From a virus: a stretch of 64,000 nt of DNA. The notes beneath the pieces are model-generated. The model had not been told where the DNA came from. It searched no databases and saw nothing but the letters and a program-made list of their open reading frames with translations. The stretch lies in IMG/VR virus record IMGVR_UViG_3300005676_000004. The stretch is one strand, 5' to 3'. The position numbers and the translations under genes were made by a program. Positions 545-59,990 of the stretch are shown piece by piece; within the stretch, counting starts at the first letter, position 1; every line of letters starts with the position of its first letter.

Positions 545-1034
545 AGTTGACATAGTTATTAACATTGAGCCGATTTATTAATACATCACGAACCAGACGC
601 TGAGACACTGGTGAGGATTTAGAGGAGACGCCATATTTCTGTGCGAGTTTACGATGCACGATCTTCACTAGACGTTCTATATCGCTTCTAATGGCTGTGA
701 ACTGCCCATACACATCTTCATTATCCGCAATCTTTATATCTAATCCCCATGGTGTGCCCCAAGAATCAGTGACGTCGTACTCAAAAAAATAAAGCATTCG
801 ATCTACAAAATCTTTCTTCGTAAACGAGCCAATATTATCAATCATGTCACCAATGTCCATGCGAACTTTTGTCACTACGTGTATATAGCTGTTATTAAAT
901 TTCTTGATCTTCTTCTCTAGCTCCCTCATCTCTGGCAGAGATTTAAGAATATCGTTAGCGAATCTGACGTAGGTGTCAGATACCATTTCCAAATCAATTT
1001 CTTTTGAGGTTTTTGAGGTCGTTGCTGTGCCCAC
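519..1034 (-). CDS. hypothetical protein
   Basis: 171 aa ORF, GTG start with GGAG upstream. Confidence 0.7.
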   Translation of the reverse strand: MGTATTSKTSKEIDLEMVSDTYVRFANDILKSLPEMRELEKKIKKFNNSYIHVVTKVRMDIGDMIDNIGSFTKKDFVDRMLYFFEYDVTDSWGTPWGLDIKIADNEDVYGQFTAIRSDIERLVKIVHRKLAQKYGVSSKSSPVSQRLVRDVLINRLNVNNYVNYATTSRQF

Positions 1035-1046
1035 GTGATTGCTCCG

Positions 1047-1205
1047 TTAGTTTATGAAAAGAAGGTAGCCCAAATACAGAAATGCAACGCAGACACCAAC
1101 TAAGGTGACCACAAATGCGGTAAGCAATATACAGATAAAGATGAACCTAGACAAAGGTATTTTTACGCAATCGCCATTGTCATTGCGAATTTTAACAGTT
1201 ATCAT
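1047..1205 (-). CDS. small membrane protein (52 aa)
   Basis: Hand-translated MITVKIRNDNGDCVKIPLSRFIFICILLTAFVVTLVGVCVAFLYLGYLLFIN; long hydrophobic stretch; fills gap. Confidence 0.6.
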   Translation of the reverse strand: MITVKIRNDNGDCVKIPLSRFIFICILLTAFVVTLVGVCVAFLYLGYLLFIN

Positions 1206-1244
1206 ATTGCTACCAAAGGTTTGTGTTATGATTGTGGGCTGAGG

Positions 1245-1409
1245 TCATCCGTTGTCTGTTGGGTCGTCATCATCGTCGGGGTCAAGGTAATTGACAATTT
1301 TTTGTATCCAGTTCTGCTCGTACATTTCACGCAAAATGTCTTGTAGTAGTGCTCGTTGTGCATCTGGTTGTTTAGTATCGTCCGAGGTTGGTGTAACTTC
1401 GTCGTTCAT
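1245..1409 (-). CDS. small acidic protein (54 aa)
   Basis: Hand-translated MNDEVTPTSDDTKQPDAQRALLQDILREMYEQ...; abuts upstream stop. Confidence 0.55.
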   Translation of the reverse strand: MNDEVTPTSDDTKQPDAQRALLQDILREMYEQNWIQKIVNYLDPDDDDDPTDNG

Positions 1410-1745
1410 TTAGCACCCATTAAATTCGATACCTGGAATCCAGTCGTTATATGACCCATCTCCACGAGTGTATCGACCACCCGAACTGTACGGAGGACTA
1501 TCATACCAGTGAGGTCTTCTAAAGTTTTCTGGCGGGAGTATTATATCGTCTTCCGATATATCATTTTGCTCACTACGTGGGATCGGACGGAGAGTGATGA
1601 CAATTGAATTAGACCACGTGTTTACATCCGGACCACTGACACCGACAACTTCCATACCATCTGGTATATCAACTGTTACCGAACGACTAGGTTCAGCTAC
1701 TTTGAATTGATCATTTTTCAATTCATTTGGTTCTACTTGTTTCAT
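1410..1745 (-). CDS. hypothetical protein carrying the VxVDIPDGxEV module of family F1
   Basis: RSVTVDIPDGMEVVG matches RAVxVNIPDGWEV in the 35039-37299 genes; ATG 1745 preferred to TTG 1787. Confidence 0.6.
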   Translation of the reverse strand: MKQVEPNELKNDQFKVAEPSRSVTVDIPDGMEVVGVSGPDVNTWSNSIVITLRPIPRSEQNDISEDDIILPPENFRRPHWYDSPPYSSGGRYTRGDGSYNDWIPGIEFNGC

Positions 1746-1790
1746 GATAATTGTTTTTCTTTCAGGAAACTCTTCAAAATCGTTCAATGT

Positions 1791-2132
1791 TTAATATCCG
1801 TCGATGCCATTATATGGAGTACCTTCATTGTCACGACGATTTTTTTCTTGAACTGTTGCTATTCGCTCAATGGCTTTACAATTTTTCTCCAAAAGGTCTA
1901 CTATTCGTTCAAGTGTTGTGTGAATCGCTGATAGATCGCTTAACTCGAAGGATGTTGCGGTTGTATCTACTCTGTCATCCCCTACCTCACACGCTTTCAG
2001 TGATGGGTAGCAGTTACCAAGTTTATAATCTTCTTGAGATATACCACTTCCAGTATACTTACTGAGTTCAGGAAGTCCACCAAGATTCATACGCCAATAA
2101 ATTTCACCGAGTTTTGGTTTCCAAGTGTCCAT
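1791..2132 (-). CDS. hypothetical protein, family F1 (KP-x-G-x-x-Y...GNC[FY])
   Basis: WKPKLGEIYW...YKLGNCYPS; start refined to MDTWKP. Confidence 0.65.
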   Translation of the reverse strand: MDTWKPKLGEIYWRMNLGGLPELSKYTGSGISQEDYKLGNCYPSLKACEVGDDRVDTTATSFELSDLSAIHTTLERIVDLLEKNCKAIERIATVQEKNRRDNEGTPYNGIDGY

Positions 2133-2180
2133 GGTAGTTTCCGTATTATGATTGTTAGAGTTAATTAACAAGTTGTTGTG

Positions 2181-2630
2181 TCAAGCTGAAGGCCAAAGTC
2201 CACTCTTAATGTTCTCGTGAGCCTTTTTAAGTTCATCATGTACAGAATGATTATACCGAGGATCAGACTGAATTGGTGGTGTACTACAACACTTTACTAT
2301 GATAGATGGTAAGTCTATGGTGCTCATCATGTCCCGTATTTCTTCTCGGTCTTCCAAAGCGTTAATAGATGCGTAGTAGTTAGATTCATTTTCCCTGTAA
2401 ACTGAAATGTCAACGGTTTCCCGAGAAGACCACGGATTTTTGACTAGTGACTTATCTGTGTAGTATGTCATCTCAATGGTTATCATTGAAAACTTTTCCA
2501 CAAGAAGTCTGATAAGCTCAGCAAAGTACGCCAAGTTAATCTTCTCAACTTGTTTCGGTGTTAACTCCGTAGCTCCTAACAAGGAGTACGAGTTTGTAAC
2601 ACATTCAAGTTTAATTTTGGTTGCTTTCAT
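2181..2630 (-). CDS. hypothetical protein, family F2 (MKAT...INLAY)
   Basis: Paralogous to 2836-3240 and 3944-4306. Confidence 0.7.
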   Translation of the reverse strand: MKATKIKLECVTNSYSLLGATELTPKQVEKINLAYFAELIRLLVEKFSMITIEMTYYTDKSLVKNPWSSRETVDISVYRENESNYYASINALEDREEIRDMMSTIDLPSIIVKCCSTPPIQSDPRYNHSVHDELKKAHENIKSGLWPSA

Positions 2631-2839
2631 GATTGTTTTCTTTCAATAAGCTCTTTGAAACTTCTCAGTGTTGGGGGTAGACCACGTGCAACGAGTAATG
2701 CTCTGATGCTACGACTTGAAACTTTTCTGTCCAAAAGCCAGTCCGGATATACCTCTTCATTTGGCGTTTTAGCTGCCTTTGGATGGCTAGTGTTAGCATT
2801 CGTGTCTTGGTTATTATTCTTTGCTTTACATGCTTTCAT
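2627..2839 (-). CDS. hypothetical protein
   Basis: 70 aa ORF with ATGA overlaps on both sides. Confidence 0.55.
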   Translation of the reverse strand: MKACKAKNNNQDTNANTSHPKAAKTPNEEVYPDWLLDRKVSSRSIRALLVARGLPPTLRSFKELIERKQS

Positions 2840-3240
2840 GATTGTTCTTCCTCTTCGGACTGCTTTCGTTTGTAGAATATTGTCGCTGTGCGCGGTGAAT
2901 GTTCAGCGATGATGTTATACGTATCTACGTTAACTCGGATCGCCTCTTGAATGTCGGTGAAGTCATGTTGAGCATCCAAAGTCTTCCAGTAGTCTGGGTT
3001 AAGCTCGTCAGACGTTTTGAAGTCAAGTACTCTCAAAATTGAAGGTGACTTGAATGGATCACGCGGCGCGTACTCCACTTCAACGGTTAACGTGTGAAAC
3101 TTTTTCCGTAACACCTTGACACACTGAGCCACATATGCTAAGTTTATGTCTTCAATTTGTTCTTGAGTTAGACCAGAGTCGCGACCTACCAAATCTGTTG
3201 ATGATGGGCGCGTCGTAATCTTGATTTTCGTTGCTTTCAT
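2836..3240 (-). CDS. hypothetical protein, family F2
   Basis: MKATKIKIT...LVGRDSGLT...INLAY; GAGGTG RBS before ATG 3240. Confidence 0.7.
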   Translation of the reverse strand: MKATKIKITTRPSSTDLVGRDSGLTQEQIEDINLAYVAQCVKVLRKKFHTLTVEVEYAPRDPFKSPSILRVLDFKTSDELNPDYWKTLDAQHDFTDIQEAIRVNVDTYNIIAEHSPRTATIFYKRKQSEEEEQS

Positions 3241-4400: not shown

Positions 4401-4787
4401 TTACGTATTCCTACGTAATACATACTCTTCAAGGTTAGGGAACGTGAGACCAAAATCATTTGCAATAGCACGGAACTTTGCCTCCCATTCGTGTGGAAGA
4501 AACTTGCCGTGTACTACTTGGACATACAGAAACAAATCGGGATTTAAATGCATAACAGACCTCACATGTCCTGAATTGATGATTTTGGTTGATGACTTCC
4601 CTTCTAGTAATGCATAATACTCTTCATCGGGAATTAACACACCAAACGAACACTTCAAGCCACCGTCTCCACGGTATGCGCATCTCTCATAAGTGCTACC
4701 ATCATAACGGAGTACGTTAGTTGTACTTCGTTTTCCTTGCTTAAGAGTATGTCGTACGGCCTTGTTGAATGCTTGCTGATCTGTCAT
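4401..4787 (-). CDS. hypothetical protein, family F3 (C-x-Y..G..KC..G.LIPD)
   Basis: QAFNKAVRHTLKQGKRS...CAYRGDGGLKCSFGVLIPDEEY; five copies in window. Confidence 0.7.
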   Translation of the reverse strand: MTDQQAFNKAVRHTLKQGKRSTTNVLRYDGSTYERCAYRGDGGLKCSFGVLIPDEEYYALLEGKSSTKIINSGHVRSVMHLNPDLFLYVQVVHGKFLPHEWEAKFRAIANDFGLTFPNLEEYVLRRNT

Positions 4788-5146
4788 GACACGTCCTCCC
4801 CTCCAAGAACAGAAAGCGCAAACTCACGAGCCGCTCGATAAATCTTTCCATCCTGAGACCGGACAATATCATATAAAATACCTCGTTTCTCTATTAATTC
4901 ATCATCGTTCGTACCTTCAAATGCAGACAGAACGAACGCAACACCTCCGTTCTCAAAACCCGACGTTCTAGTATAGATAACGCGGATTTGATGTTCTGGA
5001 TACCTTTGTTTGATATCGTTGGCAATGTAGTTTGTGAATCTACGATTTACAATTTCTAACTCTTTACCATTACCACTCCAATACTCGCCGACAATACTGG
5101 TGGAAGCGAGGTCTGTCTTGAGAAGAATTTCTTTCTTTACAGTCAT
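4784..5146 (-). CDS. hypothetical protein, distant family F2
   Basis: LLKTDLASTSIVG...IVNRRF..IANDIKQRYP resembles the F2 layout. Confidence 0.6.
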   Translation of the reverse strand: MTVKKEILLKTDLASTSIVGEYWSGNGKELEIVNRRFTNYIANDIKQRYPEHQIRVIYTRTSGFENGGVAFVLSAFEGTNDDELIEKRGILYDIVRSQDGKIYRAAREFALSVLGGEDVS

Positions 5147-5180
5147 GATCGTTCTCTAAAAATGTTTGTTAGTTGTTGTT

Positions 5181-5816
5181 TCAATACGAGTTCACCCACT
5201 CAAACACTTCCTGAAACTCTTCCACGGTGAGTAATTTCCGCAGATTGTTGTAATTGGTTCGTGTTTCACTGATAGTCTGTGCTATTGAAACAATTGCGTC
5301 AACGGGGTCCATATATTCACGCTCACGTTCCTTTAACTTGTTAACAACAAACCACTCTATTGATTCACCAGACTCAAAAAAGTATTGATAATCTGTGATT
5401 ATACTCGCAATCACTGCTTCTTTGGCATCTTTGGGTGGACTAGCGAGAGCTTTATCGATGCGTTTCTTCACATCAAACCCTCCACTAATGTCACCGTAGA
5501 CAAGTTTAACGAAGTCCTTTCCTGTGCGGTCGTCATGATCAACGAGGATTATCTTGTTAACAAGTTTATCGGGACCAAGGTTGAAGTGCCCGATGCCCCA
5601 TGCGTACTCAACTACAAAGGAGCGAATATCGTTGGAGTTTCTAGGTGTGCTGAATGTAAACTTGTACCGAATGCCTCTCCACCCAGGGACACGGAATTGC
5701 TTCCCTGTCTGCCAGTTCTTGTCCACTCGCGTGTCCCCTACAAGCCAACCTGAACCAAGGAGTTCTAATTTGATTTGATCAAGGCAATCTGGTACTTTTA
5801 CTTTAGTGGTTTCCAT
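5181..5816 (-). CDS. hypothetical phage protein
   Basis: 211 aa ORF, AAGGA RBS. Confidence 0.7.
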   Translation of the reverse strand: METTKVKVPDCLDQIKLELLGSGWLVGDTRVDKNWQTGKQFRVPGWRGIRYKFTFSTPRNSNDIRSFVVEYAWGIGHFNLGPDKLVNKIILVDHDDRTGKDFVKLVYGDISGGFDVKKRIDKALASPPKDAKEAVIASIITDYQYFFESGESIEWFVVNKLKEREREYMDPVDAIVSIAQTISETRTNYNNLRKLLTVEEFQEVFEWVNSY

Positions 5817-5853
5817 GGTAAATTTCCTTTTTGTCGTCGGTTACGTGTGTAGA

Positions 5854-5880
5854 TACGATGGTAGTGTCAAACGGTTACAC
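5854..5880 (-). promoter_or_regulatory. ECF-sigma-type promoter motif
   Basis: G-TGTAAC-N16-CGTA, 38 nt upstream of ATG 5816. Confidence 0.6.
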
Positions 5881-6336
5881 GTCTTCTTTATTGCCGTTCT
5901 CGGCATATTGTTGTGGAATTCCGTGAGCCAAAATTACCGCCTTGAAGTCATCAAACGTTGACGCCATTTCGTATGCATACCGTGATGTATACTTATGCGG
6001 TGGTGAGTTATATTCACGTTGTACAAATCTACTCACAATTGCGTCTTGAGCATCGAATGAATACTTACTCCAAAATGATGAAGATGTGTTTAGGAAGTCA
6101 ATACTGTTCATTGTGGACTGTACCCACCACCACGCATATGACAACAAAATATCAAGCTGATCCTCCCAATCCTTAGTCGCATTGATAGTTTGTATCATAT
6201 CTTCATAAAAGTGCGGTCGCTTTCCATCAAGCTCAGTCTCAAATTTTCCAAGAAGAAATAAGTTTAGTAACTTGTTCTCTTCTTGCTTAGCAAAGTAAAC
6301 TCTGCGATCGTTCAGAATGTTGATGGATGTGTCCAT
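5875..6336 (-). CDS. hypothetical protein
   Basis: 153 aa ORF in minus-strand run. Confidence 0.65.
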   Translation of the reverse strand: MDTSINILNDRRVYFAKQEENKLLNLFLLGKFETELDGKRPHFYEDMIQTINATKDWEDQLDILLSYAWWWVQSTMNSIDFLNTSSSFWSKYSFDAQDAIVSRFVQREYNSPPHKYTSRYAYEMASTFDDFKAVILAHGIPQQYAENGNKEDV

Positions 6337-6365
6337 GAGCTGTCTCTATGTGGTGGTTGAACACT

Positions 6366-6665
6366 CTATTTGATCGGACGAAAATATACCGATAAACATG
6401 ATAGTCCTGCTACTTTGTCTTCGTCTTCCTCAAAGGAATCAAAGACCATATCAGGTGGTACATCTATGACGATAGATCGTTCACTTACTATGCGTTTGAA
6501 CATATCGCGAAATTCAAAGGCACCTTGGAACGTTAAGAAGAAGTTACCAATTTCTAGCCGCCTGCGCTCTGGAGTAGTATCACACCACCTATCGTCCAAT
6601 ATTTCACCGTACTCCGTAATATAGAAATATTGAGTACCGAGCGATAGATTATCGATTATATTCAT
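6366..6665 (-). CDS. hypothetical protein, family F1
   Basis: GTQYFYITEYG...W...RRRLEIGNFFLT...RSIVIDVP. Confidence 0.7.
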   Translation of the reverse strand: MNIIDNLSLGTQYFYITEYGEILDDRWCDTTPERRRLEIGNFFLTFQGAFEFRDMFKRIVSERSIVIDVPPDMVFDSFEEDEDKVAGLSCLSVYFRPIK

Positions 6666-6669
6666 GATG

Positions 6670-6927
6670 TTAGTTAAGTTTGGTGAACGTTAATGTTTGG
6701 AATTTGCCAAGAAACTTTCTCGTAGAGAGATCAACCACTTTGGAGAATTTTATTCCAAATTGATCCGTACCTGGATATACAGCCACCATCGCCATATTCC
6801 AACATACGCCATGATCAGCCGAAATTGAACGCATTACGTCTAGGACTGTATCGTCCGAGCTGTCAACGATATACGCACAGTTGTCATCTGGAAACATTAA
6901 AGCGTACTTCATAGTTGTTGTGCTCAT
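6670..6927 (-). CDS. hypothetical protein
   Basis: 85 aa ORF, ATGA overlap. Confidence 0.6.
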   Translation of the reverse strand: MSTTTMKYALMFPDDNCAYIVDSSDDTVLDVMRSISADHGVCWNMAMVAVYPGTDQFGIKFSKVVDLSTRKFLGKFQTLTFTKLN

Positions 6928-6955
6928 CGTAGAACCTTTTTCAATGTCTTTTTTG
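6914..6955. repeat. direct repeat copy 1 (42 nt); copy 2 at 8265-8305
   Basis: gttg[t/c]tgtgctcatcgtagaacctttt(t)caatgtcttttttg; one substitution and one indel. Confidence 0.85.
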
Positions 6956-7352
6956 TTCCTGACTGTTCACACGCGAAAAAGATAGTGTCTGAAACAATCC
7001 AGAGGTCCCAAGGAAAAAGATCAAGTTTCTCGTGAATTTTCTTAGCTAGCTTTAGTACGTCCTTTTCCAGCGTCTTGTGTTCCTTGTAAATCTGCTCCAG
7101 TTCTGGAGTCATTTTAATGATTGGAACTTCGTCAACATCATAAACCATGTTCGTGATTCCACGTCTGAAACCCAGCTTGTTGGACGAGACTAAATCACCT
7201 GCGTCAAATGATATTGAAACAGTAATTGGGAATTTGTTTCTCTTGAGTGATTTGTATCTTTCAATCAACCCACCAAGTTCTTCACTTGAAGTCACCATCT
7301 CGTACACTTCTTCACGGGTAACTTCTTTGCTCGTATTTTTCATTGTCTTCAT
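6924..7352 (-). CDS. hypothetical protein, family F4
   Basis: MKTMKNTSK..REEVYEMVTSS...YKSLKR..FP..ISFD; near-duplicate of 7378-7827. Confidence 0.75.
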   Translation of the reverse strand: MKTMKNTSKEVTREEVYEMVTSSEELGGLIERYKSLKRNKFPITVSISFDAGDLVSSNKLGFRRGITNMVYDVDEVPIIKMTPELEQIYKEHKTLEKDVLKLAKKIHEKLDLFPWDLWIVSDTIFFACEQSGTKKTLKKVLR

Positions 7353-7377
7353 GGTTGGTGCCCTCTTATGTCGTTGG

Positions 7378-7827
7378 TTACGATACTGAATGTTTACGTC
7401 TATGTGATTGTCCACACACAACAAGAATAATGTCAACAACACTCAAAACATCCCATGTCCAAATATCAATTTGTTTACAAATATCAATTTGTTTACAAAT
7501 TTTCTTAGCTAGTTTTAGTATGTCCTTTTCCAACTTCTTGTGTTCCTTGTAAATCTGCTCTAGTTCTGGAGTCATTTTGATGACTGGATAACTGATGGCA
7601 TCATAAACCATGTCCGTGATTTCTCGCATGAATGTCATCTTGTCGATCGAATTTAGATTAGATGGGTCGAATGATATTGGAACAGGAACTGGGAAGTTGG
7701 TTCTCTTAAGCGATTTGTATCTTTCAACAATTCCATCAATTTCTTTGCTCGAAGTCACCATTTCATATACATCTTCACGGGATACAACATAAGTGACTTG
7801 TTTGCTTGTGTTTTTTGTTGTCTTCAT
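7378..7827 (-). CDS. hypothetical protein, family F4
   Basis: MKTTKNTSK..REDVYEMVTSS; contains an 18-nt tandem duplication (CKQIDI twice). Confidence 0.75.
   Translation of the reverse strand: MKTTKNTSKQVTYVVSREDVYEMVTSSKEIDGIVERYKSLKRTNFPVPVPISFDPSNLNSIDKMTFMREITDMVYDAISYPVIKMTPELEQIYKEHKKLEKDILKLAKKICKQIDICKQIDIWTWDVLSVVDIILVVCGQSHRRKHSVS
7460..7500. repeat. 18-nt tandem repeat (2 copies plus partial)
   Basis: caaatatcaatttgttta twice. Confidence 0.9.
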
Positions 7828-7840
7828 GGTTGGTGTCCTC

Positions 7841-8278
7841 TTAGTTTGTTTCTAGGAAACACATCTGATAGATCATGTTTCGGACATGAGCAATGTGACA
7901 TGTATCTGGATCAAGTTTCTTATAAATTTTCTTAGTTAATTTTTCCATGTCTTTTTCCAACTCCTTGTGTTCGGTGTAAATCTGGTTCAGTTCTGGATTA
8001 TTTTTGAAGACAGAATATACTGAACGTGTAATAGATTCAATAACCGTCCCTATGATTATTTCACCGAAACTCATCTTACTGCATGATTCTAAATCAGACC
8101 CGTCAAACGATATTGGAACAGTGATTGGGAAATCAACTTTCCGAAACGTTTTAGCCCTAACAATCAGTTCATCAATTTCTTTGCTGGAAGATATGATCTC
8201 CCGTAACTGATTGTTATTGGTGTACTTAATGAAGTATAGAGCTTGCTTGATTTTTGACTTCTTGGTTGCTGTGCTCAT
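7841..8278 (-). CDS. hypothetical protein, family F4
   Basis: IISSSKEIDELI..FPITVPISFD...ELNQIYTEHKELEKD. Confidence 0.75.
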   Translation of the reverse strand: MSTATKKSKIKQALYFIKYTNNNQLREIISSSKEIDELIVRAKTFRKVDFPITVPISFDGSDLESCSKMSFGEIIIGTVIESITRSVYSVFKNNPELNQIYTEHKELEKDMEKLTKKIYKKLDPDTCHIAHVRNMIYQMCFLETN

Positions 8279-13406: not shown

Positions 13407-14228
13407 ATGGAAGATTCAATAAAAAACACAACAAAAAGTTCAAGTACTGGGGGCCGGCCCGCACTTGAATTAACAGAAAAACTTATAAGATATGCAATGG
13501 CAAACACTTGGAGTAACACGGAAGCAGCAAAGTTTCTTGGTGTGAACTACAAGACGTATAGATGGTATGCTAAGCTGTATCGAGAACCGGATGGCAGGAC
13601 ACTGTTTGAAGTACATAAAAAAGTTTCTTTTGATCCGGAGCGGATGAGGAACATCAGAAAGAAAAAAAGTGATAAATCTTATTCTTGTAACAAAGGTTAT
13701 AAAGAAAAGCTCGAAGACATTCTTGCAGGGAAACACCAGGGATATTCACCAAGGAAGTTACGTAAAAGAATTTTACTGTCTGGGTGGATTGAACCAATCT
13801 GTGCAAACTGTGCATGGAATGAATCGAGAGTGACGGATGGAAATTATCCGTTGCTCATCAATTTTAAGGATACAAATTGGAGAAACTGTCACCAAGACAA
13901 CATCGAGCTGTTGTGCTTTAACTGTTATTTTCTGTTGGTGCGGTCACCGTCACGTTCATTCCAGGGATGGAGCTATGGTAAGTTCAGGAAGCAAGTACGT
14001 GCTGATGGGAAACCAAAAGGTTATGGTTCACGGAGATGGAATAAAGAGCACGGGGTCACTGAGAGTTACCGCGTACGTCGGTATAAGCAGCTTCTGGAGC
14101 TGAATGAGGAATACCGAATTAAGTACGGTGAGGACGCGGTGATAAAGGATATTCGAGTACCGTGGGAAATCAGTGGGTATCCAGAAGGTAAAGAGAAGGA
14201 TACCAATGTTGATGGTACGCCGATATAA
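13407..14228 (+). CDS. HTH plus degenerate HNH zinc-finger protein
   Basis: EAAKFLGVNYKTY (HTH); CANC...LLINFKDTNWRN..DNIELLCFNCY (HNH fold, catalytic His positions replaced). Confidence 0.7.
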   Translation: MEDSIKNTTKSSSTGGRPALELTEKLIRYAMANTWSNTEAAKFLGVNYKTYRWYAKLYREPDGRTLFEVHKKVSFDPERMRNIRKKKSDKSYSCNKGYKEKLEDILAGKHQGYSPRKLRKRILLSGWIEPICANCAWNESRVTDGNYPLLINFKDTNWRNCHQDNIELLCFNCYFLLVRSPSRSFQGWSYGKFRKQVRADGKPKGYGSRRWNKEHGVTESYRVRRYKQLLELNEEYRIKYGEDAVIKDIRVPWEISGYPEGKEKDTNVDGTPI

Positions 14229-14230
14229 TA

Positions 14231-14266
14231 AAAAACGGTAAGGCTACAGGTTACCCTACCGTTTTT
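14231..14266. terminator. bidirectional intrinsic terminator
   Basis: AAAAACGGTAAGG / CCCTACCGTTTTT stem right after stop 14228, between convergent genes. Confidence 0.7.
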
Positions 14267-14325
14267 CGGAGAAGATAACTGATGGATGTACCAGTTACCA
14301 ATACTAATTGCCAAATTTATAGAAA

Positions 14326-14341
14326 TGTTCCACGTGAAACA
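14326..14341. other. parS centromere-like site (canonical ParB/Spo0J binding sequence)
   Basis: TGTTCCACGTGAAACA matches consensus TGTTNCACGTGAAACA at all positions; intergenic. Confidence 0.8.
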
Positions 14342-14354
14342 TTTTTAGTTTCCC

Positions 14355-14501
14355 GATGAAGGGGGCAAACTACACTAGGCGGATGAGTTTCTGTTTTACT
14401 ACTGTATAGGTGTTACCCTATATTCCGCCTAGTGCTTGCTTGCCGTTTTGCCGATCATCAAGCGAGAGGTCAACAGGAGGATATAAGCGAACTCTCTCGT
14501 T
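14355..14501. ncRNA. candidate structured RNA or cis element
   Basis: Nested stems GATGA/TCATC, GGCAA/TTGCC, CACTAGGCGGA/TCCGCCTAGTG (11 bp perfect), TATAGG/CCTATA, plus a second hairpin AGCGAGAG/CTCTCGTT. Confidence 0.4.
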
Positions 14502-14572
14502 CAATAACCGTTCAATGACCATGTAACAAATATACGGAGTTCCTACGAGAAATCCAAATTAATTTTTGTTCA

Positions 14573-16039
14573 TTAACAGCTACCGTCAAACTTATCATCA
14601 AAGAGCCAGTCTAAAATAGTGTCCTCTATGATGTTTTTATTCCAAAAATCGTTTAGAGTGAAGAAAACATCACGTTCAGCATCTTCAAATCGTTTGCCCA
14701 TACAGCCTACAACTACACTCGTGTAGTCTGCAATCAAAGAGTCAAGTTCGCTCTCGTACATATCAATAAATTCTTTTCGTACTGCCTCGCGATACTTGTT
14801 TATAATATCAAAGGTTAGTGTATGATACCTCATACCGCCATCTTCATCTTTTTTAGGATAGATTAACTTCGGTATGAACCAACTTGGGATACCAAGAACC
14901 ATAGACTTGTTCTCATGAAACAGCGGATATTCATGGCCATCAAGCATGATGGATGCGGGAAGATCAATAGCTACCTCAAAGTTTTCAGAGCTTGATCGAA
15001 ACCTAGACAGTTGACCATTGAACTGTTCGCTATATCTATGCAAAAACTCCTGCCATGTTGGGAGATTGAGGTGTCCGTTTCTGTCAGTGCTGTAAAAGAG
15101 TAAATCATCAATTTGTTTATCAAGTGGCGTAAAGTCATTAAACTCTTTTATGTATCCATAGAATATATCTCGGAATGACGGTGGAAACCCTTGGGTACCG
15201 AAAACAAACTCCGTCTCAGCGGCGGTTACTGGAACTATAGGCATCAAGCAGGAATAACCTATAACACCTTGAACGCTTGGTATACGCATGTAATTCGGCA
15301 GGACGCGGTATCCTTTACCAAAGATACTATCGTTGACAAAGTCACTTTTAAATGCACTACGCCTCTTAAACTCGTATGCTATCTCTAGTGCAATATCACC
15401 CATCCAACCGTCTGTTGTTTCTACGGTTGATTCTTTCAACATCGTATAACCATACAATGCCTTAACAGACTTCAGTATACGATCTAAAGAATTATAGTAA
15501 CCACGACCATACTCGTTATAAATAGTTGACCCACCAATCGCACCCAACGTACACTCAATTCTCAGTATGGTAGTGTAAATAAACTCAAGTCTACTAAGAT
15601 GTAAAAATTTACTAGCTACCCGAGAGATTTGTTGTACGTCATCAACTGAGAATACAAACTCTGTTGTGTGAGGTATGGATAGCTCAATACGACGTACATC
15701 CAGCTCTTTGATCTGCCTTCTAACGAACTTACGGTTGGATGAGTCCTTTGTTAGTAGGACGTCACCGTGCTCATCAGTTGCATAGGCATCTGCAAGACTA
15801 TCCATTATTGAATAGAATGAAGGTGCAGGGGGTGAGTCCAATACCTCAAAATATTCATGGAAAAGGTGATCTTCATCAAGTGTTGTAAAGAGTTCATCAA
15901 TCCTCGTAGAAGATATGAACGTATGCAACTTTTCACGGCGTGGATACCGTGTGATGTCATCTGCACTGAACGGTGGTAGTGCTACTGTTGATTTATTCTG
16001 ATAGAAGTCAGAAGGCAGTCCTGGGTGAAATCGTTTCAT
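14573..16039 (-). CDS. large hypothetical protein (488 aa)
   Basis: Long ORF, no motif recognised. Confidence 0.8.
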   Translation of the reverse strand: MKRFHPGLPSDFYQNKSTVALPPFSADDITRYPRREKLHTFISSTRIDELFTTLDEDHLFHEYFEVLDSPPAPSFYSIMDSLADAYATDEHGDVLLTKDSSNRKFVRRQIKELDVRRIELSIPHTTEFVFSVDDVQQISRVASKFLHLSRLEFIYTTILRIECTLGAIGGSTIYNEYGRGYYNSLDRILKSVKALYGYTMLKESTVETTDGWMGDIALEIAYEFKRRSAFKSDFVNDSIFGKGYRVLPNYMRIPSVQGVIGYSCLMPIVPVTAAETEFVFGTQGFPPSFRDIFYGYIKEFNDFTPLDKQIDDLLFYSTDRNGHLNLPTWQEFLHRYSEQFNGQLSRFRSSSENFEVAIDLPASIMLDGHEYPLFHENKSMVLGIPSWFIPKLIYPKKDEDGGMRYHTLTFDIINKYREAVRKEFIDMYESELDSLIADYTSVVVGCMGKRFEDAERDVFFTLNDFWNKNIIEDTILDWLFDDKFDGSC

Positions 16040-16053
16040 GGTGATTGTGGTGA

Positions 16054-16608
16054 TTATTGTAAAATTATTTTTGTTAGTGCCGAATGTACCGTGTCAGACT
16101 CATACCACCGAGACGTCCATACGACTCGCAAGGTCATAGTGTCACCCACCATGTCTAAGGTAGGTGCTATTACACCCGAGAAGTTACCGTCGTCGTCTGT
16201 GTACGATGCACCATTTACAGTGGGTACCATCATTGAGTCTGGTGTGACGAAGTGTAGCGTGTCAACGTTTACCCAGAAACCAGAATCGTTTACATTTCTA
16301 CGTACGATGGTAACCGCAGTGTCACCTGGCTCAAACCACCAGAACAACGAACTCTCCCAGATCACACGCTGGGGATACTTTGCCTTGTTATCCGATAGTG
16401 GTATAAGTTTACCTTCCAAGCGATGGATCGTCTGGTATCGATTCCTGTCGAGTGTAAGGTAGTAAAAATCTCCAACCTTCGGTAACCTACCGTCCAGGTC
16501 AATAGTGTACTTCCCTTCCTCGTACGTTGAAGCAGGATCCGTACAAGAGCACAAAAATGCTACCATAGCGATGATGATCGCGTGTAAGCTAGTTCTCATG
16601 GCTTTCAT
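16054..16608 (-). CDS. putative lipoprotein
   Basis: Hydrophobic signal ending FLCSC (lipobox) followed by a beta-rich region. Confidence 0.6.
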   Translation of the reverse strand: MKAMRTSLHAIIIAMVAFLCSCTDPASTYEEGKYTIDLDGRLPKVGDFYYLTLDRNRYQTIHRLEGKLIPLSDNKAKYPQRVIWESSLFWWFEPGDTAVTIVRRNVNDSGFWVNVDTLHFVTPDSMMVPTVNGASYTDDDGNFSGVIAPTLDMVGDTMTLRVVWTSRWYESDTVHSALTKIILQ

Positions 16609-16816
16609 GTGTTTTGGTGGTAAGGTGGTGCATCATCACGTCTTCCGTGTATCTCTGAAGATGTAACGATGACGTTAGGTTGTCGCCTATCCCTAGCGTT
16701 AAAACTACAGCTATAGTAAAAGACGGAGGCACTAGAGCATCATACCCCAGTGCCAACGCCGTAATGCAGATAATAACATCCACAGCTATCAACCACGATA
16801 ATAACTTTTTTTTCAT
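16589..16816 (-). CDS. small membrane protein
   Basis: MKKKLLSWLIAVDVIICITALALG..; two hydrophobic segments; start refined. Confidence 0.55.
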   Translation of the reverse strand: MKKKLLSWLIAVDVIICITALALGYDALVPPSFTIAVVLTLGIGDNLTSSLHLQRYTEDVMMHHLTTKTHESHEN

Positions 16817-16922
16817 TTTCTGTTCTCTGCCATGAAGAAGAACCACAGCAGCCCAATGAAGGCGACTAGAGCAATTCCAAATCCCATAGTCGGTTCCCTA
16901 TGTTGATGAAGGTAAAATTGTT

Positions 16923-17141
16923 TTATACATCTCGGATCGTGCCGAGAAATTCACCAGTAGTCTTGTGGTGAATCAGACAGCGATCATTCTCGCGTCGTAC
17001 GTGAATGTACGCATTGTGCCATGGTTGACCATACTTCCGTGCGAGTGTCCTTGCAGCTCCTGTGATGGAGTCGGATGTTGACTTCCCGACGAGTGTCATT
17101 CCGCTCGGGAGCGTCAAGACGTATGTTTTGGTTGGTTTCAT
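16923..17141 (-). CDS. hypothetical protein
   Basis: 72 aa ORF in minus-strand run. Confidence 0.6.
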   Translation of the reverse strand: MKPTKTYVLTLPSGMTLVGKSTSDSITGAARTLARKYGQPWHNAYIHVRRENDRCLIHHKTTGEFLGTIRDV

Positions 17142-17160
17142 GGTAGGATGTAAAAGTTTT

Positions 17161-17382
17161 TTAGTTTATTGCCGTTTGGTTGACGAGTGTAGCATCTGCC
17201 GGACGAAGGACACCAGCTTCAATGAAGTCGTGCGCCGCGCGTCCATACCATCCCTGAAGAAACCAAACAACTCCAGTATCAATAAGATACTGCCAAGCCC
17301 CGAGGTACTGATCTTCCGTCGTATCGTCGGGTGGGTTTTCAATGAGCAAGACAGCGGCAAGGATTTCTTGAGTTGCTAGCAT
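17161..17382 (-). CDS. conserved small phage protein (AWQxLIDTG..WxLQGxYGR; DUF7417-like)
   Basis: Motif recognised from memory of this phage family. Confidence 0.65.
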   Translation of the reverse strand: MLATQEILAAVLLIENPPDDTTEDQYLGAWQYLIDTGVVWFLQGWYGRAAHDFIEAGVLRPADATLVNQTAIN

Positions 17383-17399
17383 GACAGCATTCCACTACT

Positions 17400-17428
17400 A
17401 GTTTACGAAAAAATTTTGAGATTTCCAA
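17400..17428 (-). promoter_or_regulatory. sigma70-like promoter
   Basis: TTGGAA-N17-TAAACT upstream of 17382. Confidence 0.4.
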
Positions 17429-17436
17429 ATGCTCAT

Positions 17437-17724
17437 TTAGTGAGCAGCGATCCGGAAGGGAGCAGCATCGAACAACCGACGTGCAGTCTTCTCAACGTTT
17501 TGAGCCTGTGGGGACGTCTGACGAAAGATAGTATAGAAGTCTACAGTTCCTTCGTTGACGTTGTCAATTGCTACCTGAAGTACACCGTTCATCATGGTAG
17601 CGTGAGAGACAATCGTGTCCTGATCAATTTCCTCAGCGATGTCGTTGAGGTCGCTTGATGAGGCGTTAGCGATTGAGTTCTTAAGCGTGGAGATAACGTT
17701 CTCGGTGCTGTATGGGGAGCGCAT
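17437..17724 (-). CDS. hypothetical protein
   Basis: 95 aa ORF. Confidence 0.6.
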   Translation of the reverse strand: MRSPYSTENVISTLKNSIANASSSDLNDIAEEIDQDTIVSHATMMNGVLQVAIDNVNEGTVDFYTIFRQTSPQAQNVEKTARRLFDAAPFRIAAH

Positions 17725-17763
17725 GGGTGTGTTGGTTTGTGGTTGAAAGAAAGGTAAAAAACT

Positions 17764-18033
17764 TTAAGCTCGTTGCGCGACCATGCGCATCTTGGTACCG
17801 TTGTCTGTCTGCTCACAGAGCCAGACGGCTCCGTAATGAGTTGCAATCATGTGAGGAAAGTAAACTTCCTCTTCAATTGGGTCATCGAGGTTAACCCACC
17901 TTACTTCAGCACCAGCGCAATGTATCGCTGTAGCTAACAGCTCATCACGGGTAAGGTCGTTGCCGAGGCTTGGATCGTGTGCTCCACCGAAAAGATGTAA
18001 GCCATCGATCGTGAGGTTAAAGCGTTCTTCCAT
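17764..18033 (-). CDS. hypothetical protein
   Basis: 89 aa ORF, AAGGA RBS. Confidence 0.65.
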   Translation of the reverse strand: MEERFNLTIDGLHLFGGAHDPSLGNDLTRDELLATAIHCAGAEVRWVNLDDPIEEEVYFPHMIATHYGAVWLCEQTDNGTKMRMVAQRA

Positions 18034-41850: not shown

Positions 41851-41987
41851 GTATCTTACTAATATTAGCCACAATCGTCGTACTGATTGTTACAGCGGTT
41901 ATTGTGGCACTAGTAATTGAACGAAACTCGTATGAGAACGACTCCTACGATGACAGTGTACTCACATCGTTGTATAGTGAAGAATGA
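41847..41987 (+). CDS. small membrane protein (46 aa)
   Basis: Hand-translated MSILLILATIVVLIVTAVIVALVIERN..; ATGA overlaps at both ends. Confidence 0.55.
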   Translation: MSILLILATIVVLIVTAVIVALVIERNSYENDSYDDSVLTSLYSEE

Positions 41988-43060
41988 ACGATACACAATT
42001 ACAGCGCGTTGAGTTTAGACTTGGAGAACTGTTTAGTGGGCCAGGTGGGTTAGCACTTGGAGCTATCAACAGCTCCATTGAAGCTAATGAAAGGATATAT
42101 TCCATACAACACGCTTGGGCTTCTGACTACGATAAGGATACGTGTGAGACATACCGTCGGAACATCTGTCCTGATAATCACACATCTGTAATTTGTGAAG
42201 ATGTTAGTAATTTAGAGTTTGATCAGTTAGGGGAAATAGACGCCCTGTCATTTGGATTTCCATGTAACGACTTCAGTGTTGTGGGGGAGCGAAAAGGTAC
42301 TAATGGTAAGTTTGGACAATTGTATCAATATGGAGTTTCGGCACTTAAATTTTTCCAACCTTTATTTTTCGTTGCTGAGAACGTGGGTGGTTTGCGCAAT
42401 TCAAACGATGGGAATGCCCTCCGCACAATCTTGAATGAGTTGGAGAGTAGCGGATACAACGTAGTCCCACACTACTATCAGTTTGAACAATACGGAGTGC
42501 CACAAGCAAGGCATAGAATAGTTATTGTAGGAATACGTGATGATTTGGGAATCGATTTCAAGGTTCCAGCTCCGTTAACAACACCTCCGATTACATCCCG
42601 CATGGCACTTGAAAATCCACCAATTGATATTAATGCTCCCAACCATACATTTGTAAAGCAGTCTGACCGAGTGGTTGAACGTTTGAAATACATCAAGGCT
42701 GGTGAAAATGCGTTTACTGCTAACATTCCAGACGACTTAAAATTAAATGTCAAAGGCGCGAAGATCAGCACAATATACAAAAGACTTGATCCCGACAAGC
42801 CAGCATACACCATTACAGGGAGCGGGGGCGGAGGAACACATGTTTACCATTGGAGTGAAAATCGCGCATTAACAAATCGCGAACGTGCACGACTACAAAC
42901 TTTTCCAGATTCATTTGTATTTTCAGGCTCTCGTGAAAGTGTTCGTAAACAAATCGGCATGGCTGTGCCACCCGTGGCATCTAAAATAATTTTTACGTCA
43001 ATTTTACAATGTTTGGCTGGGGTTGAATACCCAAATGTAGAACACTCAATTTGGAAATGA
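41984..43060 (+). CDS. DNA (cytosine-5)-methyltransferase, Dcm-like
   Basis: Motif I ELFSGPGG, IV GFPCNDFS, VI ENVGGL, VIII QARHRIV, IX RERARLQTFPD, X QIGMAVPP. Confidence 0.92.
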   Translation: MNDTQLQRVEFRLGELFSGPGGLALGAINSSIEANERIYSIQHAWASDYDKDTCETYRRNICPDNHTSVICEDVSNLEFDQLGEIDALSFGFPCNDFSVVGERKGTNGKFGQLYQYGVSALKFFQPLFFVAENVGGLRNSNDGNALRTILNELESSGYNVVPHYYQFEQYGVPQARHRIVIVGIRDDLGIDFKVPAPLTTPPITSRMALENPPIDINAPNHTFVKQSDRVVERLKYIKAGENAFTANIPDDLKLNVKGAKISTIYKRLDPDKPAYTITGSGGGGTHVYHWSENRALTNRERARLQTFPDSFVFSGSRESVRKQIGMAVPPVASKIIFTSILQCLAGVEYPNVEHSIWK

Positions 43061-58255: not shown

Positions 58256-58699
58256 ATGGCTGGATTTGAGACCACTGTATTTGATCGTAAAAAGTTTGGG
58301 GATATTCTCAAGGAGATACATGCTAATCAGAAGCGTAGAAATACTCAACTTTTATCGTTCATCACCGATGTTCAACCACTTATAACTGATCTAGCGACAG
58401 CACAAGTTATACTTCCATACATTAGAGATTACATGGAAATTGTTGTCAGAAATGACGAACAACTTGTTAAGATGGCGGCCATAGCCCAGAGAATGATTTC
58501 CGCAAGTGCCGGAGCGGACGTTGGAAGTATGTTCTTGACGGAGGAAGAACGGCAAGAGATTGCAAAGCAGTTACAAGCTGCTGAGAATGAGTTGAACGAT
58601 TCAATGAACACCAAGACGGATGTAGAGGATATTTCGGAAACATTAAAGAATATTAAAGATGGACAATCTGAAGATCACAGCGAACGGACAGAGTTATGA
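58256..58699 (+). CDS. conserved helical phage protein
   Basis: F.D.LKEI..P.I.DYMEI.VRNDEQLVKMAAI.QR. Confidence 0.7.
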   Translation: MAGFETTVFDRKKFGDILKEIHANQKRRNTQLLSFITDVQPLITDLATAQVILPYIRDYMEIVVRNDEQLVKMAAIAQRMISASAGADVGSMFLTEEERQEIAKQLQAAENELNDSMNTKTDVEDISETLKNIKDGQSEDHSERTEL

Positions 58700-59990
58700 G
58701 TTTATGCCAGCGGAAGTTGTTTCCGTTGACTATGATTCGCGTGATGCAGACAACTTATACACGATATTATGTAAGTTTCTAAACTCATCCTCAGCAAAAT
58801 CTCCCAACGATCTTATCCGAGCACGTGCTTTGAACTCAAACATCAAGCACATTCCAGTGTCGGGTGAGATCGTTTTTGTTTGTAAAGCTCCGACACCATA
58901 CCACTCAGGTGCAAGTTTTGGTAGAGAATACTACTACACTAGCCCAATTTCAATACAATCCTCGGTGCATCACAATGGTTTGCCAGGTGCAAACAAAGTA
59001 AGTATTGACGGTAAGACGAAGGAACAGAGGATTAGCAACGCTACAACTGGTATACCTCAAAAACTTTCTGATAGTAAAATAGTTAAGGATCAAATTGATC
59101 CAGGGTTTCCAGAGAGAATTGACGTCCACCCATTACAGCCGTTTCCTGGAGACATCATATTTGAAGGTCGCTGGGGACAATCAATTCGGTTTGGCTCAAG
59201 CCCAGACACTAGACGACGATTCCCACAGCCTCCTAACTGGGGAATTGGCACTGGTGCAACTGGTAACCCAGTTATGATTCTATCTAATGGTACTAACCCT
59301 CGAAACAAAAAATACAATCAATTTCACATTGAATCTCCCGATGATGACGACTCATCAATATGGTTGACGTCGGGGCAGTCGGTATCATTTACACCAGCCG
59401 CATCATATAGACCATCTGTCATTGATAAAGAAGTTGATCTCTACAAGAAAAACTCGTTCGGTGGGAATCAAGTCATATTAGCGTCAGATAGAATCATATT
59501 TAACGCGAAGGCGCAAGAGATAGTTGGATTTGCAAAGCAAGGTATAGGGTTTGCCACTGATGGATCGTTGGTGTTAAATGGCCGCCGCGTAGTTGAGATT
59601 GAAAGCGAAAGAATATCACTAGGATTTAATGCAACATCCCCAGTGATATTAGGTGACAGGATGATACAGTTACTATCTGATTTTCTTAATACGATGATTG
59701 ACTTGAATAAGTCCCTGCTTCAGTTAACAGTTCCTACTGGCGTAGGGCCGTCTGGGATACCACTTAATAGCGGAGACTTTGTTGGGATTATCAACGAATT
59801 ACAGAAACTTATAAATCAGTTGCCAAGGACAGCTAGTAAGTTTGCATTCGTAAATGAGTATGCAAACGGTCCATCTGATGCAGATAGGGAGAACTTTAAA
59901 CAGCTCAAGGATAATCGTTTCGTGGTTAAGCCACAAGGCAAGCAGCGTGGTGATACTAATCGTGGTGTATCTTTTGAGAGTCTTGGATAA
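58659..59990 (+). CDS. baseplate hub/spike-like protein (gp5-like OB plus beta repeats)
   Basis: IP..GEIV, GDIIFEGRWGQSIRFG, SSIWLTS, repeated short beta strands; upstream of gp25/gp6-like genes. Confidence 0.55.
   Translation: MDNLKITANGQSYEFMPAEVVSVDYDSRDADNLYTILCKFLNSSSAKSPNDLIRARALNSNIKHIPVSGEIVFVCKAPTPYHSGASFGREYYYTSPISIQSSVHHNGLPGANKVSIDGKTKEQRISNATTGIPQKLSDSKIVKDQIDPGFPERIDVHPLQPFPGDIIFEGRWGQSIRFGSSPDTRRRFPQPPNWGIGTGATGNPVMILSNGTNPRNKKYNQFHIESPDDDDSSIWLTSGQSVSFTPAASYRPSVIDKEVDLYKKNSFGGNQVILASDRIIFNAKAQEIVGFAKQGIGFATDGSLVLNGRRVVEIESERISLGFNATSPVILGDRMIQLLSDFLNTMIDLNKSLLQLTVPTGVGPSGIPLNSGDFVGIINELQKLINQLPRTASKFAFVNEYANGPSDADRENFKQLKDNRFVVKPQGKQRGDTNRGVSFESLG

Follow-up and report, generated by a model that had tools for sequence, protein, structure and literature searches.

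The parS site and its immediate setting

The stretch of DNA analysed here, hereafter the window, comprises 64,000 nucleotides of the IMG/VR virus record IMGVR_UViG_3300005676_000004 and corresponds to G000:C1:93316-157315 (minus strand) of that 253,401-bp record, which CheckV rates as complete. A 16-bp pattern search of the window recovers, within the letters ...tatagAAATGTTCCACGTGAAACATTTttag..., the sequence TGTTCCACGTGAAACA with no mismatch to the parS consensus TGTTNCACGTGAAACA; in every letter it equals the site originally described within spo0J of B. subtilis. Seven of the eight pairs of the 16-bp core obey dyad symmetry. Once the flanks are included, the core extends into a 22-bp near-palindrome with one asymmetric pair, namely C5/A12 on the plus strand, which reads as U.G on the minus strand. 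The site is located in a 344-bp intergenic gap, 60 nt past a bidirectional terminator, and the gap is flanked by two convergent genes, of which the plus-strand HTH/HNH-like gene stops at 14228 and the minus-strand 488-aa gene at 14573 (Table 1). The preliminary description of this DNA, made from the letters of the window, had pointed to a parS match in an intergenic gap with palindromic flanks, convergent genes and a nearby terminator, and each of these elements was found again in the sequence. Its suggestion to scan the full genome for further sites led to no second one: at a tolerance of one mismatch parS is single in the complete 253,401-bp genome, where it occupies an internal position (142,975 of 253,401). 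The same site is present in 12 independent metagenome assemblies of the phage species, which are at least 99.8% identical, and hence it is no assembly artefact.

Table 1. Features in and around the parS-bearing gap, and the cytosine methylase gene (window coordinates)
Feature	Position	Strand	Remarks
HTH + HNH-like zinc-finger protein, 273 aa	13407..14228	+	converges on gap
Putative structured non-coding transcript or 3' UTR of 488-aa gene	14229..14525	-	would read through parS
Bidirectional intrinsic terminator	14230..14267		15-bp stem between A-run and T-run
22-bp near-palindrome AAATGTTCCACGTGAAACATTT	14323..14344		9-bp hairpin, ACGU loop on minus-strand RNA
parS core, 16 bp	14326..14341		exact consensus match, unique in genome
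Promoter-like TTTG-N20-TATATTTG	14527..14558	-	points towards parS
488-aa gene, ORFan	14573..16039	-	converges on gap
C-5 cytosine-specific DNA methylase	41984..43060	+	Pfam match, 231 bits

The plus-strand neighbour encodes a protein that matches HNH endonuclease families of PHROG (E = 7e-8) and, weakly, HTH_28. Both of its CxxC pairs are kept and the usual catalytic histidine is apparently missing. In relatives of the phage, homologues with 54-69% identity occupy a different locus, where a co-chaperonin-like gene follows them and no parS is nearby. The gene is suggestive of a mobile or domesticated homing endonuclease. The 488-aa protein on the other side belongs to no Pfam, PHROG or NCBIfam family and has no homologue outside the phage species in IMG/VR or among 5.8 billion proteins; its Atlas model has a pLDDT of 0.29, and it is not ParB-like by any test. 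Given that the HNH-like gene lies elsewhere in relatives and that the 488-aa gene is an ORFan, parS falls in a part of the early region that is specific to this lineage and probably mobile. At about 16000-18000, upstream of the 488-aa gene, contigs of the same species (loci L115-L125) vary in their content of small genes, with ORFs of 72, 75 and 85 aa being present or absent and one gene measuring either 170 or 184 aa, in DNA that is otherwise at least 99.8% identical where shared; the interval has the appearance of a hot spot at which gene cassettes are exchanged.

The phage and its lack of partition genes

The preliminary description had called the phage T4-like, a label borne out by the capsid protein, which belongs to the T4-type Gp23 family (218 bits). 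The genome further encodes a family-B DNA polymerase, a portal protein, a homologue of the T4 RNA-ligase/fibre-attachment protein and 33 tRNA genes. In terms of capsid identity, the nearest relatives in GenBank are Microcystis phage Mel-JY01 (70%) and Flavobacterium phages of the genus Immutovirus (54%), with an uncultured 484-kb phage (53%) and Rhodothermus phage RM378 (37%) at a greater distance; the DNA polymerase shares 58.5% identity with that of Mel-JY01 and about 65% with the polymerases encoded on a set of IMG/VR contigs. GC skew tracks gene orientation alone and gives no independent signal of an origin.

A six-frame search of the whole genome for ParB_N, HTH_ParB and the ParA-type AAA_31 domain produced no match at E-values up to 1, under conditions in which control genomes gave matches. 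The earlier remark that no parAB was in view thus extends from the window to the entire genome, and the proposed search for a phage-encoded ParB elsewhere found none at the same threshold. Neither an integrase nor plasmid functions were detected in the 253,401-bp genome. The possibility of a hidden ParB among the neighbours, including the 488-aa ORFan and a 1107-aa methyltransferase/glycosyltransferase protein, was rejected, as none of them carries a ParB-like domain. The C-5 cytosine-specific methylase encoded in the window might modify the CpG in the parS core and so affect the binding of ParB.

Conservation and chance expectation

The conservation check in relatives that the preliminary description had proposed went against the site, which is kept in contigs of the same species alone. 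At up to one mismatch, parS is found in none of 20 records of IMG/VR relatives (four of them complete), nor in Mel-JY01, Flavobacterium phage immuto 3-5A, LR756508 and RM378, i.e., in 0 of 24 relatives' records. It is likewise missing, at up to two mismatches, from all 20 metagenome fragments carrying a homologue (54-69% identity) of the HNH-like gene. The collections include no relatives of intermediate distance, and megablast against GenBank phages gave no match. Within the species, the 12 contigs display no SNP in 14229-14572 and too few SNPs overall for this to be informative; at 99.8% identity or more they say nothing on selection.

From base composition, parS is expected 1.6e-4 times per window, in agreement with the rough estimate of 1e-4 to 1e-3 in 64 kb made beforehand, and 6.4e-4 times per genome. 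Overall, the genome has about as many palindromes as chance predicts: among 16-mers, 6 perfect ones and 121 with one mismatch were observed against about 5 and about 114 expected from base composition, together with two 22-mers. As very many windows were scanned, a few chance matches in large phages are to be expected. For a single-site match in a large phage, we put the share due to chance at roughly between a quarter and a third; an intergenic location and A-rich inner flanks bring this figure down a little, and the absence of conservation together with the RNA structure described below pushes it back up.

A separate accumulation of parS half-sites occurs outside the window, in the gene for a collagen-like (G-S-S-G-T-S)n fibre protein of about 1136 codons (genome G000 58,586-61,993, L026 ~4586-7993, minus strand). 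Its AGT-GGA-ACA codons generate 47 direct copies of the half-site octamer TGTTCCAC in 1.6 kb, where 3.4 per strand would be expected over the entire genome. The array is probably a by-product at the codon level.

RNA structure over the gap

Folding of the interval 14229-14525 gives -103.9 kcal/mol for the minus strand (z = -7.8; 92 pairs, 15 of them G.U) as compared with -79.9 kcal/mol for the plus strand (z = -2.1; 85 pairs, 9 of them G.U). In the minus-strand fold the parS dyad forms a hairpin of 9 bp, in which the asymmetric pair becomes a U.G wobble; the hairpin has an energy of -6.3 kcal/mol versus -2.3 kcal/mol on the plus strand. The promoter-like sequence, read from 14558 to 14527, points into the structured element, which the terminator closes; two further gaps between genes of this phage have similar copies of the form TTTGGA...GTATATTTG. 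On the strength of the predicted fold, the minus strand of 14229-14525 is a candidate for a small RNA of the phage or for a 3' UTR with structure, and the DNA is probably transcribed through parS. A search of 13800-15000 against Rfam returned no match, and self-BLAST revealed no paralogous element in the genome. A role of the parS hairpin as an intrinsic terminator was discarded, as it is AU-rich, reaches only -6.3 kcal/mol and has CUAUAAAU after it; termination is instead assigned to the separate hairpin at 14230-14267. The RNA fold accounts for there being a hairpin at this point and not for the hairpin spelling parS.

parS across viral contigs

The exact 16-mer occurs in at least 119 IMG/VR contigs, as against 2 for the reversed sequence ACAAAGTGCACCTTGT and 6 for TTGTCCACGTGAACAA, a palindrome in which the arms were scrambled and the core CCACGTGA was kept, both controls being matched in composition. 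At least 95% of the parS matches in viral contigs are above this control background. With the flanks included, the 22-mer is present in 13 other viral contigs and its reversed control in none. The control matches fall largely in contigs of at least 80 kb (3 of the 6 for the scrambled version), which implies about 1-2 chance matches per 16-mer among large IMG/VR contigs; among the 80 parS matches listed, 7 contigs reach 80 kb and 4 of these have several sites. At viral loci with a single site, 24 of 64 sites are intergenic, compared with about 16% of non-ORF sequence. A ParB_N domain was detected in only 4 of 40 parS-bearing viral records, namely 2 of 13 and 2 of a further 27, a set that includes 16 records with a completeness of 90% or more and 11 with direct terminal repeats. 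Sites of the host type are in excess in phages devoid of ParB.

Phi29-like viruses account for 15 of 93 parS-bearing loci, as recognised by their protein-primed polymerase, Gp16 ATPase, connector and phi29-type capsid protein. Records of this kind that were searched whole display parS arrays at both genome ends. The phi29-like contigs, many from sample 3300045988, measure 11-15 kb and have 2-6 canonical parS in inverted orientation at both ends; their loci include L332, L303, L318, L340, L353, L354, L364, L006 and L007 among others. No ParB_N gene was found in L004, L006 and L007, the loci checked for it. These arrays match the published biology of phi29 and Spo0J and attest to its wide occurrence in metagenomes.

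Three larger records extend the pattern. G245 (L315; 169 kb) has 13 parS sites and G260 (L350; 117 kb) has 24, each with an integrase and no ParB_N; G256 (L339; 100 kb, with direct terminal repeats) has 6 sites and neither ParB_N nor an integrase. Arrays of 13, 24 and 6 sites in records without ParB cannot be due to chance, and these three records are candidates for the use of host ParB outside the phi29 family.

Closer to the phage studied here is G261 (IMGVR_UViG_3300028048_000079, L416), a second Gp23-bearing contig whose capsid protein is 43% identical to the phage's. It contains one one-mismatch and one exact parS, at 2896-2911 and 6236-6251 of L416, 3.3 kb apart. Both are intergenic and abut the stop of a minus-strand gene, one of them right after a terminator-like hairpin. 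Neither ParB_N nor an integrase was found in this 125-kb fragment, and its parS region has no similarity to that of the studied phage.

The probable host and its centromere

In the preliminary description the sequence had been equated with the widespread chromosomal ParB (Spo0J) site, an identification that proves well founded, as the site is archetypal. The exact 22-mer is present in more than 120 bacterial genomes, with Bacteroidota named in the titles of about 33 of the 80 bacterial matches listed (counted by record title). Of 201 genomes sampled in the phylum to which a Chitinophagaceae MAG belongs, 130 contain the exact 16-mer and 1 the reversed control; this sample represents the phylum to which the hints of a host, given below, point. 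In the sampled Bacteroidota genomes parS usually comes in pairs or clusters within 0.05-5 kb. Across 39 Bacteroidota sites chosen without bias, A occupies position -1 in 54% and position -2 in 47%, and the full AAA..TTT flanks occur in none. These flanks were accordingly dropped as strong evidence, an earlier figure of 13% having come from a biased choice of loci.

The hints of a Bacteroidota host consist of adhesin look-alikes of the T9SS type and the relationship to Flavobacterium and Rhodothermus phages. Should the host indeed belong to this phylum, the phage site would be the host's own centromere sequence. The nearest cultured relative, Mel-JY01, was reported on Microcystis. Two further signals are ambiguous as to the host: a strict Bacteroidetes promoter motif is weakly enriched (14 versus about 5, half of the matches lying inside ORFs), and Shine-Dalgarno-like motifs precede 31% of genes as compared with a background of 6%. 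One adhesin of interest is encoded outside the window, at genome G000 184,567-188,970 (L029 7567-11970, minus strand). This IgGFc-binding-like protein of 1467 aa contains Ig-like domains, and its C-terminus matches the sorting domain of type IX secretion (CTD) at a score just below the cut-off; the Atlas clusters closest to it carry Por_Secre_tail, and in most of those with recorded taxa Bacteroidota are the commonest.

Weighing the explanations

The explanation that we favour, with a confidence somewhat short of even, is that the site is a genuine orphan parS, i.e., a loading site for the chromosomal ParB of the host on a lytic-type T4-like phage without ParAB. An exact match is expected at 6.4e-4 per genome, the site is intergenic, and a single parS suffices for ParB function (PMC7022226). 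Beyond this genome, the contrast of at least 119 contigs with the 2 and 6 of the controls, the scarcity of ParB_N (4 of 40 records), the arrays in ParB-less records, the sites of G261, the precedent of phi29 (PMC2731898) and the use of the exact sequence by the probable host phylum all speak for it. On the other side, the clear cases have several sites and this phage has one; the site is absent from relatives; the AAA/TTT flanks add little; the C-5 methylase might modify the site; the host is placed by hints; and the palindrome lies inside a predicted minus-strand RNA that is exceptionally structured, which would be an independent reason for a hairpin. The recruitment of host ParB put forward in the preliminary description is accordingly upheld in so far as the site is archetypal, the phage has no ParAB and orphan sites outnumber the controls, and is weakened by the absence from relatives.

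The structured RNA leads to the main rival, which we regard as rather unlikely and nonetheless substantial: one of the five or six hairpins in the structured minus-strand RNA or 3' UTR happens to spell parS, in which case host ParB might still bind, with no selection for its doing so. The strand asymmetry of the fold (z = -7.8 with 15 G.U pairs versus z = -2.1) and of the hairpin itself (-6.3 versus -2.3 kcal/mol) speaks for such a coincidence, as do the promoter-like site pointing into the element and the terminator at its end. Palindromes at chance frequency, the singleness of the site, its absence from all relatives tested and the 1-2 chance matches per motif implied by the control 16-mers among large IMG/VR contigs point the same way. 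However, a hairpin need not spell parS, and the match comes at a cost of about 6e-4 per genome; at least 95% of viral parS matches exceed the control background; the parS hairpin is weak and AU-rich relative to its neighbours; the RNA element has neither an Rfam family nor a paralogue; and transcription across parS is compatible with a role at the DNA level.

Two other readings carry much less weight. The dyad could be an operator or recognition site for a DNA-binding protein of the phage, for instance the adjacent HTH/HNH-like one, and merely resemble parS. A loop-less 22-bp dyad is typical for dimeric proteins, and the neighbouring gene combines an HTH-like N-terminus with an HNH-like zinc finger. 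However, this is the sole such site in 253 kb and 28 HNH-like homologues in relatives have no parS-like dyad nearby, which makes a phage-encoded binder unlikely; the genome has no ParB-type HTH at E-values up to 1, and identity at all 15 fixed positions of the consensus would go unexplained. We therefore consider this reading improbable. The remaining alternative, that a captured bit of host DNA with a chromosomal parS persists in the variable early region and has not yet decayed, is similarly improbable. It would fit a lineage-specific region with an ORFan and a mobile-looking HNH-like gene, as well as the frequency of the exact 22-mer in bacterial chromosomes, including the Bacteroidota share (33 of 80) among the matches listed. 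Against it, a comparison of the gap with 80 bacterial parS loci found similarity to end about 35-40 bp around the site, so that the gap resembles none of them beyond the core and capture of host DNA was rejected on this ground; the flanking 300 nt resemble a phage transcription unit. Moreover, a random host fragment of such a size would hold parS about once in 1,000 to 3,000 cases. A passenger is a priori no likelier than chance and finds no support in the flanks.

A proposed role for host ParB

If the orphan site is indeed used, dimers of host ParB-CTP would recognise the 16-bp dyad after injection, form closed clamps and move by sliding over a few kilobases of the early-gene region around it, and the resulting complex could couple the phage chromosome to host ParA and/or SMC. 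By analogy with phi29, the likeliest pay-off would be that a genome which is not yet replicated, or replicates slowly, is positioned and inherited in slow-growing hosts, i.e., in a carrier state or hibernation; less likely, the phage DNA would titrate ParB once its copies are numerous.

If host ParB does load on this DNA, a virulent T4-like phage would have a handle on the chromosome-segregation and condensin-loading machinery of its host. Large lytic phages have long been suspected of pseudolysogeny or 'hibernation' in environmental bacteria that grow slowly, with little said of the mechanism, and such loading would provide a concrete molecular route. The database pattern (at least 119 contigs versus 2 and 6; a ParB domain in 4 of 40 records) suggests a general phenomenon. 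We propose, with reservations and at a confidence well below even, that orphan parS of the host type is a widespread phage strategy that goes far outside the phi29 family and includes large lytic-type myoviruses of non-sporulating bacteria, such as this phage and G261, and serves positioning or inheritance in delayed or carrier-state infection. If the match is a coincidence, it teaches nothing beyond caution on single short-motif matches.

Comparison with known systems

The chromosomal ParABS system, as represented by Spo0J/parS of B. subtilis, shares the identical 16-bp sequence with the phage, and in it one site nucleates the ParB complex, a single parS being sufficient for ParB function on both chromosomes and plasmids (review PMC7022226). 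Chromosomal sites are, however, clustered near oriC beside parAB, whereas the phage has a single site and no parAB. In the ParAB-parS system of P1 and SopAB of N15, a centromere on phage DNA likewise serves inheritance. Unlike the present case, these elements encode their own ParA and ParB and have unrelated centromere sequences of their own; neither parA nor parB is found on the studied phage, which also lacks an integrase and plasmid functions, and self-encoded partition of this type does not apply. A closer formal parallel is the relationship between SGI1 and the parABS of IncC plasmids, in which a mobile element with only a cis site borrows the ParAB of another replicon (PMC10954446). There, the borrower is an integrative mobilisable island that uses a helper plasmid, whereas here it would be a virus using the chromosome's system.

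The best precedent, and the only phage so far known to use host ParB in this way, is the Bacillus phage phi29, which is classed as lytic, has five parS sites and relies on Spo0J among the factors that move its genome into the prespore (Meijer et al. 2005, as cited in PMC2731898). Like phi29, the phage is lytic in type, carries the host-type TGTTNCACGTGAAACA and has no ParB of its own; ParA and an integrase are likewise missing. Host ParB acts on the phi29 genome as an alternative to immediate lysis, in a 19-kb protein-primed podovirus with its five sites towards the genome ends and with Spo0A boxes for spore entry. In contrast, the studied phage is a 253-kb T4-like myovirus with one site, internal at 142,975 rather than several towards the ends, and its host is probably no spore-former, so that the pay-off must differ from that in phi29. 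The preliminary statement that such a site was not known to have been described for a lytic T4-like phage appears to hold for T4-like phages; for lytic phages at large the idea is not new, since PMC2731898 documents the use of host ParB by phi29. With the principle already on record for phi29, what the present site would add is the T4-like setting, the single internal position and a host that is probably non-sporulating.
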